Positions 12,401 through 18,400 of a stretch of DNA of 64,000 bases are shown here, piece after piece. The translations under genes were made by a program, and so were the position numbers. The stretch covers positions 46,841 through 110,840 of the forward strand of contig JBJXFS010000112.1 in the NCBI GenBank assembly GCA_046155625.1, written 5' to 3'. Source of the stretch: Verrucomicrobiales bacterium (GTDB lineage Bacteria > Verrucomicrobiota > Verrucomicrobiia > Verrucomicrobiales > V1-33). Each line of letters opens with the position of its first letter. The stretch's first letter is position 1. The notes beneath the pieces were generated by a model. It was not told the DNA's origin, did no database searches, and saw only the letters and a list, made by a program, of their open reading frames with translations.

Positions 12401-15400
12401 CGTGTGGGATTCGTCTTCGATCCGGCGAATTACCGACCGCTTGAGGTGACGCGCACCAGCTCGTTGGTCGGCTCGGTAGCCGTTGTCAGCACCTGGACTT
12501 ACAACACCCGTGGATTCGTCGCGTCGCTCACGCATCGCGCCGGGGCGGTGACGCGAAACGCCTACAGCTTCGAATACAACCAAACGGGATTCGTCTCGCG
12601 TCGAACCGATGGGGATGGCACGGCGGACTTTAGCTACGATCCGGTGAACCAGGTTTCCGGCGTAGTGTACTCGGACCCCGCCTTCCGCGACGAATCATTT
12701 GTCTACGACGGCGCCGGCAATCGCGTGGATTCGGCAGACCACGGGCCGGCGTACGTCACCGGGCCGGACAACCGGCTGCTCAATGACGGCGTCTTCGCTT
12801 ACGCCTACGACGCTGAAGGAAACCTGATCCGCCGCACCGAGGTGTCCACCGGACTCGTCCGGTCTTTCGCCTGGGACTACCGGAACCGGTTGACCGAAAT
12901 CACCGACCTGAGCGCCGCTGCCGTGGTCACCCGAACCATCCGGTACACTTACGACGCCCTCGACCGCCGGATCGCCGCCGACACGGAGACGGCGAATGCG
13001 GGTCGGGCCGTCCGGCATTTCGTCTATTCCGGCGACGATGTGGTGCTCGAACTCACGGCCTCAGGGCCGGACGCTACGGCCACGCCATCCATGGCCTACC
13101 TCCATGGTCTTGGGACCGATGAAGTGTTCGCGCAGGACAACCTGAACGGAACCGTCCTGTGGTTGCTGGCCGATGACAACATGACGATCCGCGACGTGGT
13201 CAGTCATACGGGTGCGTTGGTCGAACATTACAAGGTCAATGCCTTCGGCAATGTGGTCGGCAAACTCAACGCGGGGTGGGTCACTCGTTACATCCTCCAA
13301 AGCCGCGAATTCGACGCGGACACCAGTTTGTACTTCTTCCGCGCCCGGTACTACGACCCGTCGACCGGCCGATTCATCAGCCGCGATCCTATTGGGTTCG
13401 ACTCCGGTGAGCAGAATCTTTACCGGTTCACCGCCAATAATCCCGTCAATGATCGCGACCCGAGTGGAACCAAGGGTCTGCTCAAATCCGCCATTCAAAA
13501 TCTGCATTATGCTTTGGTTGGTGTTCAGGTAATGTTCGACAAAGGTGAAATCTCCGGCTGGCAGGCCGGGCTCTTCGCTTTTGGCGCCGCCACGCTGCTG
13601 GGCGGTGCCGAACTCACTGGGCTGGTATACGATACGGCTCAATTAGGGGTCAATGTCACTTTCGCTCCGGAGTATGTCGGATCGACGGAAACGCAGAGCT
13701 CGTTGGGGACAGCTTGGCGTGATCACCTCGCTGGAATCGAGGGCAATCCGTGGAAACGGACTGTGGCATTCGCGGGTGAATTCGTGGCGGGGTTTGTCGG
13801 ATTGCTCGCCCTGCTTCCGGCGGCCCCGGTTATTAACGCCGCGCTGAGCGGTCTGGCCTTCAGTGCCCTGATTTCAGGTGAGCCGGTCATCGCGGGGGAG
13901 ATGTTGGCGGGAGTGGTCACCCTTGGAGGGATCACCAAAGGACTTCGGGTCGGCGGCTCCCGGGTCGCCGGGTTCCTGAGCAACAGGTATCCGGGTCTGT
14001 CGAAGGTGACGGATTCCAAAATTTATAAGTTCTACGCCAATGCGAATGCAAAAGTGGAGAAATGGTCCCACAAGAACTGGACGAGCGCCAGGAGCTGGAT
14101 CAACGATCGGGTTAAAAATTGGCACCCAGACTGGAACACCCCTGTAACAAAATTGATGAGGGCTACCATGGATCGGATCACCGCCAAAGTGAACGCCAAA
14201 CTTGAGCCCTACGAGTGGCGCGGCAACGGATTGATCGCATCGATGCGCGCCTTCAATGCCAAGTACAATCCGCTGGCCTCGACTTACAAGAATGCCTTTG
14301 AATCGAGCTACACCACAGGCGGCTTGATCAGTAAGGAACGGATGTCAGAAGCATACACAATACTTTCCAAGCAGTCAAATATGGGAAGACAGACACAGGC
14401 GGCGCAAGCAATGGGCGATCGGCCTGATCGAACCGCGAGATGGCTCGAGCACGCGATCCACGAAGGCGGAGTCGACCGTAACACGGCCGGCGAGTTGAGG
14501 GAGATAATGAAAGGGATGCATAAGGTGGGCTATGAGGACATAACAGCTATGGGAGGTGCCACGACCCGGACAATCAATAAATCTCGAGAAATCGTAGCGG
14601 CGTTCGCGGAGGGAGAAATCGGGAATATCACGCTCAACTCTAAATTTGCATGGGCGAACATCCGCAGTGCCTATGAAACCCTGCGCGACAACCCAAGTTT
14701 GTTGGGCAATAGGTACGCATCCGCCGAGGAGTTTTTGAAGGACGTCTTGACCACCAAGGCGAAGGTTTATGCTCACGAAAAAGCGCACTTTAGAACTTTC
14801 GATCGACTGGCATCCGACATTGCAAGGCGATTTAACCTGAACTTGACGAACGCGAGGAACTGGCTGGCGGAAGCGGGTAGCAAGAAGGCGAACGGGCGCG
14901 CTAGGAATGCGGAAGTCCTCGCGCGTGTTGAATTTGAAGCGGAGCGGCAGGCCCGGAGGTGGCTTGGCGCATCGGACGAAGCGGCCGTGGCATTGACATT
15001 AGAGGCGCATCTGCCGAAATACGGTAGGAGAGGGGTGACTGGACAGCACATAGAGGATCTCAACCAGCGGGCTTCCGCGGTCTTCCGTGCCCAAGCACAG
15101 GCAAAAGCACAGGCGGCCCAGGCATCGAATGCAACGAGGGCGGCGCTGGGTGGGATATCACTTGGTTCCCCCCTGACCGGAGCGGAACGGGCGGCACGTG
15201 CAACTGGCGAAGCGCGGGCCGCACTTGGCGGAATCTCGTTAGGCGCCACGCTGACGGGTGCGGAACGGGCGGCGCGGGCGACCAGCGAGGCCCGGGCGGC
15301 GCTTGGGGGGATGTCACTTGGAGCCCCACTTACGGGAGCGGAACTGGCGGCTCAGCGCGTAAGGGCAGGGGTATTTTCGAATACCCCCTGGGTGGACGGA

Positions 15401-18400
15401 TCGGTGAGAGCCGGACTCCGGTCGATATTGGACAATGACTTCGTTAAGGCATCGATTGGTTTCGGGAATCATAAAGCGATGTCAGCGAGCCGAGGAGGCG
15501 CACAACGTGGTGCGGAGTTCGCGGCGGCGGATGCCTCTGTCAGCAGTTGGATGAACCGGCTGCTGGGGAATGGGGGCGGGAGCATTGGTCCTTCGCATGC
15601 GCAAATCCCCCTGCTGAATTCGGCGCCAATGGCGGCCCGTCCGACATGGAGGGGGAATGTACTTGGGGGGCTGAAGTCTGGAGAAATGCCGACATTCGCC
15701 GCGCCGCCGCCAAGACCTGCGCCATTGTCGGTTTTCGGTGCGGCGGCTCCCGTCCCTGGCCGGTCAGTGGCGTCCGGCGGCGGACAAATTGATGACGCGG
15801 GACCGTCGGGTGCTGGATTCGATGAAGCTTCACCCTTAATGAATTGGCTGATCCAATCCGATCCCACCCTAACGTCTTCAGGGGACCCGTCGACGCCCGT
15901 GGACGGTTCGGCCTGGGCCGGCCGATTGGATGACATGTCGCGGCGAGCGCTGGGGATGTGGGAGGGGGCGTTGGGCTGGCTGCCGGAGGTTGGGATTGAG
16001 GTGGTGTGGACCGATTTGCCGGCTGGGCAGATTGGGATGAGTCTGATTACGTCTTCGGGTGCGCGGGGCGAAGCGCTGACTGGCCGAGTATTTCTGGACC
16101 GGGATGCGGACGGATTTGGGTGGTGGTCGGGGGATGAAGGTGAGGCGGGGCTGTGGACGGCGTCGACGGGTGGCGCGTCGTCGGCGGCGGCGGGGACTGA
16201 GGCGGCCGGTCGGATCGATTTGCTGACGGTGATGACGCATGAATTTGGGCATTTGCTCGGATTCAATTCGTTCTTCCAGGGGTTTGCGGCGCGCACGACG
16301 GTGCGGGGCGATGGGTCGGCGTATTTCACGGCGGAGGGCGGACCGTATGTGCTGACGGGCGACCTAAGCCATTTGGACAGCGGAGTGCATCCGTGGGACT
16401 TGATGAATGCGACGATCCGGCCGGGCGAGCGGAAGCTTCCGTCGGCGGCGAACGTGGCGATGCTCGAGGCGGCTTGGACGGGGTATACCGGGGAAACGAC
16501 CACGGCCAGCGGCGTCAGGTTTTTCTATATACTGGCTGACACGTTTGCCGTGCCCGAAGGTGGATTTGTGTTGCTGGCGGACGCGGTGGCGGAGCAGTTG
16601 GCGGGTGACGTGCCGACTGGATTGCAGGACGGCGGATTTGCGGCGCCGGGGCATCCGGATTGGGATGTGATTGGAGAGGTCGAGTTCCAGGGTGGCACGG
16701 TGCGGTTGGGTGAAGACCCCGATCGAATTTTCAGTTCGCTGAGCCAGGTATTCCGGCTCCCGGCCGGCGCGCGGTTCCTTGAGTTTACAATTTCGGATCT
16801 GGTGCTGGGAGGCGGAGGCAGGACACCGGCGGATGCGTTTGAGATTTCGTTGCTGCATGCGGGCACTTTTGCTCCGGTGGTCGGGGTGGTGTCCGGTCTG
16901 AGCCACACGGACGCGTTGCTGAATGTTCAGCCTGGGGGAGTGGTGTTCGCAGCGGATACTGTGGCACTGACGGGCTCGGTGGCGGAGGGAGACTTCGGGG
17001 TAAGGATCGATCTGGCCGGGGTGCCGGCGGGCACGCCGCTATTATTAACGTTTGATTTGATTCGATTCGGCGTGGCGGACAGCACGGTGACCATAAACAG
17101 CGCCTTGGTGAAGGGAGAACCGGTCGTGGAGAGCACGCCGCCGGTCGTGACCGGTGGCCAACCGGTGGCGGTTAGGCAGGGCGACCGGTTTGAGGCAACG
17201 GGATCGTTCACCGATGCCGGCGGAGCGGACGTGTGGACCGGACTGGTGGACTTTGGCGATGGGAGCGGGCCGCGGCCGCTGGTGTTGAGCGGATCCGGCT
17301 TTGTGCTGGACCACGTTTTCCTGAAGGCGGGCGTCTGGAGCGTCGTGGTCACGATCACCGACAGCCGAGGCGATTCTGGTTCGACGACGTGGGAAGTGAC
17401 GGTGGAGAATGTAGCGCCGGTGGTGGCGGCGGTGGCTGATCAGGCAGTGAAAACCGGCCGGCCGGTCACCGTGACGACGACGTTCACGGATCCGGGCGAC
17501 GATACGTTTACGGCGGTAATCGACTGGGGCGATGGAACGGTGGTGCCGGCGGTGGTGGATGCGGCGGGACGAATCGTCAGCGGCGGACACGTTTACGCGA
17601 CCCCCGGCACTTTCACCGCGGTGCTGCGTCTGTCCGACGGGACAACCGATGTGACTGTGCCGTTTTTGGTGACGGCGGAGGCGGACGTGACGCGCGTTCT
17701 GGTTACCGGTGCGGCATCGGTGGTGGAAGGATCGGCGTATGTGATCGCCCTCACGGCGGAAGGCCCACGCGCCGAGGCGATCACATCCTGGACGATCAAC
17801 TGGGGTGACGGCAGTGTGACAACGTACAACGGAGCCCTGCGACTGGCGGCCCACGTGTACGGCCGGCCGCAATCGGCCTACACGATCACGGCGGTGGCCA
17901 GCGACGGGGTGGCTCAGTTTGAGTCTGGGCCGTTGAGCGTCGAGGTGCTGAATTCAGCGCCGCGCATGCTGCGATTCATACCAGGAAACCGGGTGGCCGA
18001 AGGATCGCCGGTGCGCCTCACGGTCGTCTTCGATGATCGCGGATGGAGCGACCAGCATGTGGTGACCGCGCATTGGGGCGATGACACGACCAGCACAACC
18101 ACGCTGCCCGAAGGATTGCGGCGGTTTGACCTGACTCATGTGTACACCAACAACCGGCCGAACGGCGCCCCGTACGACGTCCGGATTGTCCTGACCGATT
18201 CCGGCCAGAACGCGATCGAAATCTTGACGATCGCGGAAGTCATCAACGTGGCTCCCGACGTCAGCGTCGCCGGGCCCGCCACGGGATCGTCAGGAAGCGA
18301 GGTGACCTTCACTGGCTCGGTTGGAGATGCCGGGCTGACTGACGCCATCGAGGTTTCATGGGACTTCGGCGATGGAGTGGTGCTGCCGTTTGCGCCGGCT

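Follow-up and report, generated by a model that had tools for sequence, protein, structure and literature searches.

A variable segment behind the Rhs core-end motif of two giant Verrucomicrobiales proteins as a putative effector slot

Introduction

Two giant open reading frames, ORF A and ORF B, are encoded in the window (the whole 64,000-nucleotide stretch of Verrucomicrobiales DNA that was analysed), and each carries an internal segment of about 800 aa between regions that are related in the two proteins. An earlier sequence-only reading, made without database searches, regarded the segments as a swappable cassette reminiscent of polymorphic toxins. The locus therefore raises the question of whether the segments are unrelated modules exchanged at one site or diverged copies of a single module, and whether that site is an effector slot.

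Results

Position and boundaries of the cassettes

Cassette A (13472-15934) corresponds to aa 4462-5282 of ORF A (821 aa) and cassette B (54304-56724) to aa 10870-11676 of ORF B (807 aa), such that the coordinates, equivalent position, and near-equal length given by the sequence-only reading were exact. Both cassettes start at the first codon 3' of the Rhs core-end motif PxxxxDPxGT (PVNDRDPSGT in A and PVRFTDPRGT in B, with a final T where L is usual), the junctions being ...NNPVNDRDPSGT followed by KGLLK in A and ...NNPVRFTDPRGT followed by EAKDS in B. A six-frame scan of the window with the published motif definition (PMC8765631) identified just two core-end motifs, one in each protein, and A and B each keep the pair of Asp-Pro motifs in the autoprotease region. 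In characterised Rhs and Tc proteins, PxxxxDPxG[L/T] is the autoproteolytic boundary of the encapsulated toxin (PMC8765631). The variable module had been described as internal and unusual; it is flanked on both sides, the conserved tail behind it measuring 1,370 aa in A and 1,090 aa in B. The site immediately behind the motif is nevertheless where Rhs proteins canonically carry their toxin, and it is internal because a generic metzincin-sandwich-(PKD)-dockerin module, which also occurs on non-Rhs giant proteins, forms the C-terminal end of this family. The distance from core end to HExGH is 922 aa in A compared with 907 aa in B, and A/B similarity returns ~100 aa ahead of the matrixin-like HExGHxxGF domain.

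Table 1. Coordinates of features of proteins A and B in the window.
Feature	Position	Strand	Remarks
ORF A	89..20035	+	
Protein A RHS/YD-repeat (shell) region, about 2,670 aa	5468..13471	+	Pfam RHS_repeat E=6.5e-196, 23 stretches
Rhs core-end motif of A, DPIGF...NNPVNDRDPSGT (PxxxxDPxGT)	13385..13471	+	predicted aspartyl autoproteolysis site
Cassette A head, hydrophobic, Gly/Ala-rich	13472..13996	+	weakly homologous to cassette B head, z=6.8
Cassette A variable core	13997..15811	+	orphan, predicted all-alpha; HEKAH 14774-14788
78-nt tandem repeat in cassette A, 2.3 copies	15173..15351	+	encodes ARAALGGISLGxxLTGAERAARAT units; repeat also visible in protein
Protein A tail: matrixin-like metzincin + beta-sandwich-like module	15926..17125	+	HEFGHLLGF 16238-16264; 59-63% identical to B
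Protein A tail: PKD repeats	17126..18523	+	Pfam PKD_4 E=2.2e-36, 3 stretches
Protein A: dockerin-like pair of DxDxD loops	18884..19063	+	by eye; no Pfam match (below detection)
ORF B	21697..59988	+	
Protein B RHS/YD-repeat (shell) region	46429..54303	+	Pfam RHS_repeat E=3e-128
Rhs core-end motif of B, DPMGF...NNPVRFTDPRGT	54217..54303	+	
Cassette B head, hydrophobic	54304..54903	+	homologous to cassette A head
Cassette B variable core	54904..56613	+	no similarity to A
B-type conserved domain (~300 aa)	55543..56505	+	FRGTLGAS 55954-55977, TDLDFN 56113-56130, VELY 56386-56397
Protein B tail: matrixin-like metzincin + sandwich module	56716..57918	+	HEFGHLFGF 57025-57051
Protein B tail: PKD repeats	57919..59316	+	Pfam PKD_4 E=1.1e-32

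Comparison of the cassettes

Smith-Waterman alignment with 200-300 shuffles confined the likeness between the cassettes to the hydrophobic Gly/Ala-rich head. The first ~200 aa scored 78 compared with 35.8+/-6.2 for shuffled sequences (0 of 300 shuffles reached 78), while the cores (A 176-821 and B 201-807) scored 47 compared with 47.0+/-7.1 (z=0). The A and B cores (~600 aa) are non-homologous and only the head (~180 aa) is in common. This bore out the sequence-only reading, which had seen a Gly/Ala-rich hydrophobic start in both cassettes and nothing recognisable after it, and the homology throughout that would have spoken against its proposal was not found on alignment. Hydrophobic windows lie at cassette aa 34-52 and 96-151 in A and at aa 57-83 and 117-156 in B. 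No relative of cassette A was found in any sequence set searched, a profile of the family's post-Rhs region scored -5.6 bits on it, and its AlphaFold2 (AF2) single-sequence model was all-helical and poor (pLDDT 47).

The closest relative of B, the orthologue-like L001, is 61% identical in the Rhs region, 44-49% in the segment (55% in the core by tblastn), and 57% in the tail. As the segment keeps this identity between B and L001, whereas A and B share no core similarity at an equal tail identity of 59-62%, the difference between A and B points to replacement rather than divergence, and at the sequence level the B/L001 pair rules out simple fast divergence of the segment.

The sequence-only reading had also taken both cassettes to be paralog-specific, which does not apply to B as its segment belongs to a recurrent family with 12 matching database proteins (exhaustive phmmer search) and HMM matches in 8-9 genome loci. 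The order Rhs, segment, metzincin, sandwich, and dockerin is retained wherever the B-type domain recurs. Among 17 sequences with 19-57% identity to B, the motifs G..G, R, D..K.P, DxD, and E.Y are invariant (G140, G143, R152, R177, D181, K184, P186, D192, D194, E283, and Y285), and since these residues are invariant across distant taxa the B-type core appears to be constrained like an enzyme. The domain had no match in Pfam, NCBIfam, PADLOC, or the PDB, and a Foldseek search with the poor structure model of B (pLDDT 58) found nothing. Comparison with Pol-beta-type nucleotidyltransferases, which are recognised by an hG[GS] motif, a DxD strand, and a third carboxylate on an adjacent strand, showed that the motifs RGTxGAS, [ST]DxDxN, and VELY are present and invariant in the B-type core with ~50 aa between the G motif and DxD, with no HMM or fold match, and this identity is a candidate to be treated as a lead only.

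The metzincin tail

The downstream module had been estimated as about 70% identical in A and B; the measured identity was lower, reaching 67% in the first 121 aa, 63% in the first 400, and 59% across all 868 aa. At their extreme C-termini (A 6146-6648 and B 12541-12763), the proteins differ save for a 56-aa patch, and the 3' end of ORF A is doubtful because its last ~265 codons overlap a real antisense gene. The metzincin-sandwich part of protein A is 30-35% identical to family members, with the H, E, and H of HExxH invariant, and the family profile matched MMP-20 at E=8e-4 and karilysin at 6e-3. Pfam M10 was above the cut-off in L025 and L064, with no M10 match in A and B. Compared with the matrixin signature, HExxHxxGxxH plus a Met-turn, the H, E, H, and G of the tail motif HExGHxxGF are invariant and the third-ligand position is N/D/S/T, for which a conserved downstream H.xxxLM may stand in. 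Dockerin_1 was identified at the dockerin-like position in family members. The metzincin tail also occurs on non-Rhs giant proteins (CARDB/cadherin-type) that have no variable segment; on this distribution, the tail is a generic C-terminal module.

The Rhs shell

The shell starts were set by eye, in A at GWGLNGYSRII and in B likewise, and YD motifs extend from aa 2122 to 4238 of protein A and from aa 8707 to 10646 of protein B. The upstream flank had been called a conserved cocoon, but the Rhs region is just 31-45% identical per 100-aa window and is the most diverged alignable part of the two proteins. Rhs identity was equal to or above tail identity in same-type pairs (n=5; Rhs/tail 91/90, 71/66, 70/64, 64/58, and 55/48) and below it in different-type pairs (n=16; 44/62, 51/62, 37/59, etc.); shell sequence co-varies with cassette type.

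Cassette types in related genomes

Planctomycetota, Verrucomicrobiota, and related bacteria encode the giant Rhs/YD-shell exoproteins that make up the family. The tail was present at 64 loci; at 20 of these, HExGH is preceded in frame by an Rhs core end at a distance of 566-981 aa, and the core-end HMM matched 20 loci at E 1e-36 to 1e-49. A swappable cassette between conserved flanks, as the sequence-only reading proposed, is supported by the 20 genome loci in which the same flanks (Rhs core end and metzincin-like tail) enclose at least nine mutually unalignable cassette types, A and B counted; the search of related genomes that it had suggested thus yielded at least seven further unrelated segments. 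Cassette similarity within the family is all-or-none, likeness between types being limited to the last ~100-140 aa except for a head common to L014 and L018 and a 44-aa patch in L012 and L014. A hydrophobic segment lies within the first ~200 aa in 21 of 30 cassettes. The suggested matches to toxin families did not emerge, as no cassette type matched Pfam or PADLOC, nor did A, B, or the B-type domain match NCBIfam.

Neighbouring genes

ORF A is followed by genes for two paralogous secreted-type proteins and a membrane protein, and ORF B by apt, which does adjoin as reported earlier although the gap is 234 rather than 235 nt (stop of B at 59988, apt start at 60223). In accordance with the earlier remark that no obvious cognate immunity gene is present, no co-varying immunity gene was found downstream of A or B or in the related loci examined. 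In Stieleria/Rhodopirellula loci, the 260-aa gene that follows shows 88-98% identity between loci of three cassette types.

Discussion

A putative effector slot

The A and B regions are probably the hypervariable cargo slot of giant Rhs/YD-shell exoproteins, with the segment as an effector behind the Rhs autoprotease site; a toxin function of the cassettes is inferred from this position. By analogy with characterised Rhs and Tc proteins, cleavage by the aspartyl autoprotease would follow DPxGT, all of the segment or its head at least would be enclosed in a shell of unusual size (~2,500 aa of repeats), and the segment would act as an effector. The hydrophobic head could be a membrane-interacting or translocation part, and within the YD shell of one bacterial teneurin-like protein lies a hydrophobic C-terminal domain that permeabilises membranes (PMC13018210). 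Activity would reside in the core, which would be enzyme-like in B and alpha-helical, with an HExxH motif, in A, while the metzincin may cut the C-terminal side in cis, the PKD/dockerin end would anchor the protein on the producer's surface, and new types could arise from recombination swapping shell and cargo together. Tc cocoons hold ~30 kDa (PMC8765631), and because a cargo of 566-981 aa is 2-3 times this size, it is doubtful that even ~2,500 aa of repeats could enclose it completely. In the polymorphic-toxin template, releasing peptidases are N-terminal of the toxin and not behind it (PMC3482391), which counts against an effector slot. Also counted against it were the missing toxin-family match and co-varying immunity gene, the T-for-L motif end, and the poor structure models.

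A wider and tentative extension is that PVC-group bacteria possess an undescribed class of giant surface-anchored Rhs machines, in which a generic exoprotein scaffold would swap a double-sized shell and a 600-1,000-aa cargo as one internal unit. Two cuts, one at each end, by the Rhs aspartyl protease and the cis metzincin would release the cargo, and new effector families including the B-type enzyme-like domain would be used without immunity genes against other organisms.

Alternative explanations

The segment might instead be a non-toxic structural linker or plug of the teneurin kind, which fills the shell ahead of the point where the chain leaves, with neutral or shell-coupled variability and the metzincin/PKD/dockerin tail as the functional end. 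The teneurin chain exits its shell and has its C-terminal domains outside (PMC8765631), and such a role would suit the co-variation of shell and segment, the absence of an immunity gene or toxin-family match from the searches, and a tail that is better conserved than any other part and is found again on other giant proteins. It is nevertheless unlikely, as the enzyme-like invariant G, R, D, K, and E residues and at least nine unrelated sequences of 566-981 aa are unexpected in filler, and both autoprotease Asp-Pro motifs are kept whereas teneurins do not cleave (PMC8765631).

That the segments are homologous and diverged past recognition as a weakly constrained shell-tail linker, with nothing swapped, is improbable. 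The similar lengths of the cassettes and of the core end to HExGH interval, the common organisation (hydrophobic head, core, and Gly/Ser/Pro-rich end), the detectable similarity of the heads, and a flanking Rhs region already at 31-45% identity all fit with divergence; the B/L001 comparison at equal tail identity, the constrained B-type core, and the all-or-none similarity in the family do not.

Less credible still is a target-recognition module or variable pro-domain controlling a constant metzincin effector, such that the polymorphism would reflect prey or host specificity rather than toxin diversity. The metzincin does follow directly with an intact HExxH, and C-terminal peptidases of polymorphic toxins have sometimes been proposed as toxins themselves (PMC3482391), but the same tail follows CARDB/cadherin-type giant proteins without such a segment, the place right behind the Rhs cleavage motif is that of the cargo, and the hydrophobic head is unexpected in a soluble recognition domain. 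Finally, an assembly or annotation artefact with chimeric or frame-shifted ORFs, to which the antisense overlap of ORF A might point, is hardly conceivable given that both cassettes are uninterrupted and in frame with conserved protein sequence on either side and that the part order is the same in L001 and 19 other independent assemblies.

Significance and comparison with known systems

If the segments are effectors, environmental Planctomycetota and Verrucomicrobiota, the antagonistic biology of which is poorly known, harbour at least nine effector domains that are uncharacterised and match nothing in Pfam or PADLOC. Two rules of toxin mining would then change, namely that the toxin is the extreme C-terminus and that the Rhs core is conserved with the immunity gene next to it; pipelines using these rules would overlook the whole family.

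The variable region of Rhs toxins is usually roughly 100-400 aa and the Rhs core is usually the conserved part. Here, the variable region is 566-981 aa and precedes 1,090-1,370 aa of conserved tail, the repeats comprise about 2,500 aa compared with about 1,000 in Rhs toxins, the shell diverges along with the cargo, and neither a PAAR/VgrG context nor an adjacent co-varying immunity gene was found. The likeness to Rhs/YD polymorphic toxins such as the T6SS effector RhsA of Pseudomonas protegens (PMC8765631) includes the RHS repeats, the PxxxxDPxG[L/T] core end with both Asp-Pro motifs, hypervariability from the next residue, and many unrelated variants.

The Tc toxin TcB-TcC cocoon with the TcC hypervariable region is similar in its large shell of comparable residue count, its aspartyl autoprotease boundary, and its encapsulated variable cargo, although encapsulation is inferred here. 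Tc toxins need no immunity gene. The proteins described here differ in forming one polypeptide, in a cargo 2-3 times larger, and in the C-terminal tail behind it. A Tc toxin BC component was considered and rejected, as Pfam detected no SpvB, TcdB-mid, or TcA-binding propeller domain in A or B and no tcA-like gene was found in the window.

CdiA-CT consists of two parts, an entry domain and a toxin, and the common N-terminal sub-module followed by an unrelated C-terminal core (heads of A/B and of L014/L018) resembles this arrangement in a different protein family and with a hydrophobic head. The polymorphic-toxin template (Zhang et al., 2012; PMC3482391) likewise unites a variable module with repeats, a peptidase, and a signal for trafficking in a single chain, except that here the peptidase and adhesin domains are C-terminal of the variable module, which is not terminal.

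Teneurins and bacterial teneurin-like proteins also have a YD shell with additional domains behind it in one chain and are a precedent for C-terminal domains outside the shell (PMC5851990; PMC13018210). The Pfam TEN_YD-shell match reached just 19.7 bits, below the cut-off of 50, and no FN-plug or NHL signature came to light. Compared with metazoan teneurins, the autoprotease motifs are kept and the tail comprises metzincin, PKD, and dockerin rather than ABD/Tox-GHH. The size of the cargo poses the structural question of whether a ~2,500-aa YD shell encloses 65-105 kDa or the chain exits as in teneurins.

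Boundaries and comparison of the two cassettes

The cassettes of the neighboring giant Rhs genes A and B (see table) lie downstream of a very large RHS/YD-repeat region (Pfam RHS_repeat E=6.5e-196 in 23 stretches for A and E=3e-128 for B). In both, the codon directly following the Rhs core-end motif PxxxxDPxGT is the first of the cassette, with KGLLK following RARYYDPSTGRFISRDPIGFDSGEQNLYRFTANNPVNDRDPSGT in A and EAKDS following RARYFDPATKRFISADPMGFAAGDANLYRYAGNNPVRFTDPRGT in B, and no third core-end motif occurs in any of the six frames of the window. As the sequence-only reading had proposed, the cassettes share their position and approximate length and are unalike past a Gly/Ala-rich head. 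The first ~200 aa, containing moderately hydrophobic Gly/Ala-rich stretches, gave a Smith-Waterman score of 78 (z=6.8, reached by 0 of 300 shuffles), whereas the remainder (the core) scored 47 versus a shuffle mean of 47.0, i.e. no similarity. Similarity resumed at LDDMSRRALGMWE in A and LDATSRLALYMWE in B, with identity decreasing from 67% in the next 121 aa to 63% when 400 aa are compared and 59% for 868 aa; the downstream module is hence about 60% rather than the previously estimated 70% identical.

In BLASTP, A 1-4612 matched B 6498-11027 (45% identity) and A 5280-6145 matched B 11674-12540 (59% identity), leaving the cassettes and the extreme C-termini as the two unaligned stretches. In 100-aa windows past the first 300 visible residues of A, identity stood at about 40-70% as far as aa 2000 and at 31-45% over the Rhs region. 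The cassette did not rise above noise, the tail gave 49-71%, and the extreme end was again indistinguishable from noise. The Rhs cocoon, earlier taken to be conserved, is therefore the least conserved alignable part of the pair.

Features of the window with coordinates counted from its start
Feature	Coordinates	Strand	Description
Giant ORF A	89-20035	+	6,648 aa; frame open to window start, 5' end cut off
Cassette A	13472-15934	+	aa 4462-5282 of A; 821 aa
HEKAH motif	14774-14788		in cassette A, region predicted helical
Tandem repeat	15173-15351		in cassette A; 78-nt unit, 2.3 copies, 77% matches
Antisense gene	19241-20029	-	262 aa; signal-peptide-like start; overlaps A 3' end
Paralogue of antisense gene	20019-20744	+	PEP-CTERM-like tail at end of product
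Membrane protein ORF	20816-21568		between A and B; 250 aa, several hydrophobic segments
Giant ORF B	21697-59988	+	12,763 aa
Cassette B	54304-56724	+	aa 10870-11676 of B; 807 aa
B-type domain	55543-56505	+	~300-aa domain in core of cassette B

Two further readings were set aside or stayed weak. Orphan toxin/immunity modules downstream were dropped given the two core-end motifs and the lack of a second copy of either cassette. A foreign origin by base composition has little in its favor, the GC3 dip of cassette A being weak (0.64 at 13500-15900 against 0.71 and 0.76 in the flanks) and cassette B unshifted (0.75 versus 0.75 in its flanks). The tandem repeat of cassette A encodes three Ala/Gly-rich 26-aa units. 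The HEKAH sequence of the same cassette conforms to HExxH; one such motif has an estimated chance of roughly 2% in 821 aa, and with no homologues by which to gauge its conservation a zincin toxin was retained as a lead.

Relatives of the cassettes and the B-type domain

Word-indexed homologue searches with the whole cassettes, PDB sequence searches, and Pfam, NCBIfam, and PADLOC returned no match for either cassette. An exhaustive phmmer search with the two cores joined against 1.84 billion representative proteins identified 12 matches. All fell in the B half, at cassette B aa ~430-730, and the A half had none; scanning metagenomes with the core of cassette A likewise found nothing. The 12 proteins (757-3,711 aa, many fragmentary) display, as far as each reaches, the order RHS repeats, core end (...DPxGL), often a hydrophobic stretch, a long helical region, the B-like domain, HExGHxxGF, a 'DLSQTFVxP ... 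LYFDLIGFG' module, and dockerin repeats. Core end and HExGH lie 826-959 aa apart in them, a range that includes the spacing of B (907 aa) and that of A (922 aa).

Across 17 sequences 19-57% identical to B, the invariant residues of the B-like domain, numbered within 55543-56505, were G140, G143, R152, R177, D181, K184, P186, D192, D194, E283, and Y285. Its pattern of a strand, a G-x-x-G-[AS]-[ST] helix, a DxD strand, and then h-E-h recalls Pol-beta-type nucleotidyltransferases, for which the spacing is unusual. Alignment and profile comparisons with Pfam, NCBIfam, PADLOC, and the PDB gave no match backing this reading, and Foldseek of an AF2 model from 13 sequences (pLDDT 58) gave no PDB match at E<=0.001. 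It is treated here as an uncharacterized, enzyme-like domain. The single-sequence AF2 model of the cassette A core (pLDDT 47) was too low in confidence for a fold search.

Distribution of the slot in related genomes

Early tail scans of genome and metagenome contigs with patterns from the A/B pair alone found nothing, and an alignment (A3) of A, B, and ten of the phmmer matches was needed to find the tail in genomes. Within A3, A and B were 30-35% identical to the other members and the H, E, and H of the HExGH active-site motif were invariant. Scanning one genome per species with A3 revealed 64 tail loci, mainly from Pirellulaceae, Stieleria, Rhodopirellula, Aquisphaera, and Gemmataceae, and from Verrucomicrobiota, Lentisphaerae, and Victivallales, with some in Burkholderiales and Rhodobacteraceae. 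An in-frame Rhs core end (HMM E 1e-36 to 1e-49) was present 566-981 aa upstream of HExGH in 20 of the 64. The B-domain HMM matched eight of these 20 and one more weakly. The cassettes had been described as paralogue-specific, which does not hold for B (12 phmmer relatives, 8-9 loci) and stands for A insofar as no relative was found: cassette A gave no match to the family loci by phmmer or six-frame tblastn, and the post-Rhs family profile scored -5.6 bits on it.

The proposed modular replacement, and the suggested search of related genomes for the same flanks with other cassettes, were both borne out by these 20 loci, in which the same flanks enclose unrelated slot contents. At least nine slot types were distinguished by clustering: one B-type, one comprising loci L016, L020, and L022, and seven singletons (A, L002, L006, L010, L012, L014, and L018). 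Similarity between clusters was confined to the last ~100-140 aa, which are part of the metzincin module, except for a head common to L014 and L018 and a 44-aa patch in L012 and L014. Of 30 cassettes, 21 had a hydrophobic stretch among their initial ~200 aa. Pfam gave no match above threshold for the ten other cassettes, a sub-threshold DUF6861 in L018 being the sole trace, and PADLOC gave none for the seven of the ten that were run through it. The observation is real and reaches well past the two paralogues.

Replacement of the cassette and co-variation of the shell

Locus L001, the closest relative of B, matches it at 61% identity over the Rhs part and 57% over the tail, against 44-49% over the cassette; the cassettes therefore evolve just slightly faster than their flanks. 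The tail identity of A and B equals that of B and L001 while their core similarity is nil; one cassette has thus been substituted for the other, or both have an outside source. When pairs sharing 45% or more of their tail were compared, all five same-type pairs had Rhs identity equal to or above tail identity (Rhs/tail 91/90, 71/66, 70/64, 64/58, and 55/48%), versus well under tail identity in 16 of 16 different-type pairs (44/62, 51/62, 37/59, and 36/58%, among others). The shell thus goes with the cargo; either the two would be exchanged together, or the shell would adapt fast to new cargo. In L014, L016, and L018 (Stieleria/Rhodopirellula), alleles with different cassettes are ~50% identical in nucleotides until a point about 420 nt past the HExGH codons on the 3' side (locus nt ~10650), where identity jumps to 81-97%. 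All sequence upstream of this point differs, which places a breakpoint within the tail. Most of the next gene shares the high identity, which dips to 65-68% near the giant-gene end.

A generic C-terminal tail

The tail combines a metzincin domain resembling matrixins (motif HEFGHLLGF for A and HEFGHLFGF for B) with a sandwich-like module and PKD repeats (PKD_4 E=2e-36 in A and 1e-32 in B); a dockerin-like loop pair in A was seen by eye only and is not detected by Pfam. In the vicinity of the active-site helix, the tail family profile aligns with MMP-20 (E=8e-4) and with karilysin (E=6e-3). The same module was C-terminal in giant proteins without an Rhs core within 10 kb upstream, which carry CARDB, cadherin-like, and Big_9 domains plus dockerin repeats; in L025 and L064, Pfam M10 also exceeds its cut-off. 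Non-Rhs giant proteins ending in this metzincin-sandwich-dockerin tail were noted at L008, L025, L027, L032, L064, and about 20 other loci. Since non-Rhs proteins carry it too, the tail looks to be a C-terminal module of general use among the giant exoproteins of PVC bacteria; we infer that it serves surface anchoring and processing. As the Rhs-plus-cargo unit lies upstream of this module, the cargo is internal.

Genomic context and immunity genes

B starts with a LEPR-XLL motif (aa 46-64; NF012209, 26 bits, cut-off 17), followed by beta-helix, CARDB, He_PIG, and Big_9 domains (Pfam), and genes for apt, a sulfatase, and a 3-keto-disaccharide hydrolase lie nearby; such a set of neighbors is typical of Planctomycetota and Verrucomicrobiota. 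The ~6,400 N-terminal residues of B beyond those of A (21697-41000) comprise near-identical ~190-aa beta-helix-type repeats, many CARDB, and He_PIG and Big_9 arrays. The first ~300 visible aa of A (89-990) are 86-89% identical to B aa ~6498-6800 (41188-42090), after which identity falls sharply to ~60% and later to the Rhs-region level; this mosaic suggests gene conversion between the neighboring paralogues. The last ~265 codons of A (19241-20035) overlap the antisense ORF, a paralogue of the adjacent plus-strand gene (36% identity over 135 aa, E=3e-11). The antisense gene is thus likely to be genuine, and where A actually ends on its 3' side is uncertain. The translation of A past ~19100 has a non-protein-like look.

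The absence of a cognate immunity gene was upheld. Downstream of A lie the antisense gene and its paralogue, and apt follows the B stop after a gap of 234 nt (put at 235 in the sequence-only reading). In L014, L016, L018, L020, and L022, the gene that follows encodes 260 aa and keeps 88-98% identity despite three cassette types; it is therefore not a matching immunity gene. The 250-aa membrane protein ORF is the sole small membrane protein near either giant gene; its only match was to the STM3941 family below threshold (21.8 bits versus a cut-off of 40), and no relative was seen beside other family loci. Tc-type toxins aimed at other organisms normally have no immunity gene, and its lack is equally compatible with a non-toxic role; any toxin function of the cassettes is putative.

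Comparison with characterized Rhs and teneurin-like systems

The cassettes lie at the Rhs cleavage motif, undergo modular replacement, and sit between a co-varying shell and a generic tail. In characterized Rhs/Tc proteins, PxxxxDPxGL marks aspartyl autoproteolysis and the cargo remains in the cocoon, with a mass near 15 kDa for RhsA and near 30 kDa for Tc (PMC8765631). By analogy with these proteins, Rhs aspartyl autoproteolysis would cleave after DPxGT and at least the cassette head would lie inside the shell (PMC8765631). At 65-105 kDa, the cargo would seem to exceed what even ~2,500 aa of repeats could enclose, and the chain may exit the shell as in teneurins, whose C-terminal domains are outside it (PMC8765631). 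The hydrophobic cassette head fits the bacterial teneurin-like protein whose hydrophobic C-terminal domain permeabilizes membranes (PMC13018210). Cleavage in cis by the metzincin is speculative; in the published polymorphic-toxin template the releasing peptidases precede the toxin, N-terminal of it (PMC3482391), whereas the metzincin here follows the cassette. No account of this architecture turned up in literature searches covering Rhs, dockerin, Planctomycetes, and YD repeats, which is not proof of none, and it is rated as a variant that belongs with the Rhs polymorphic toxins.
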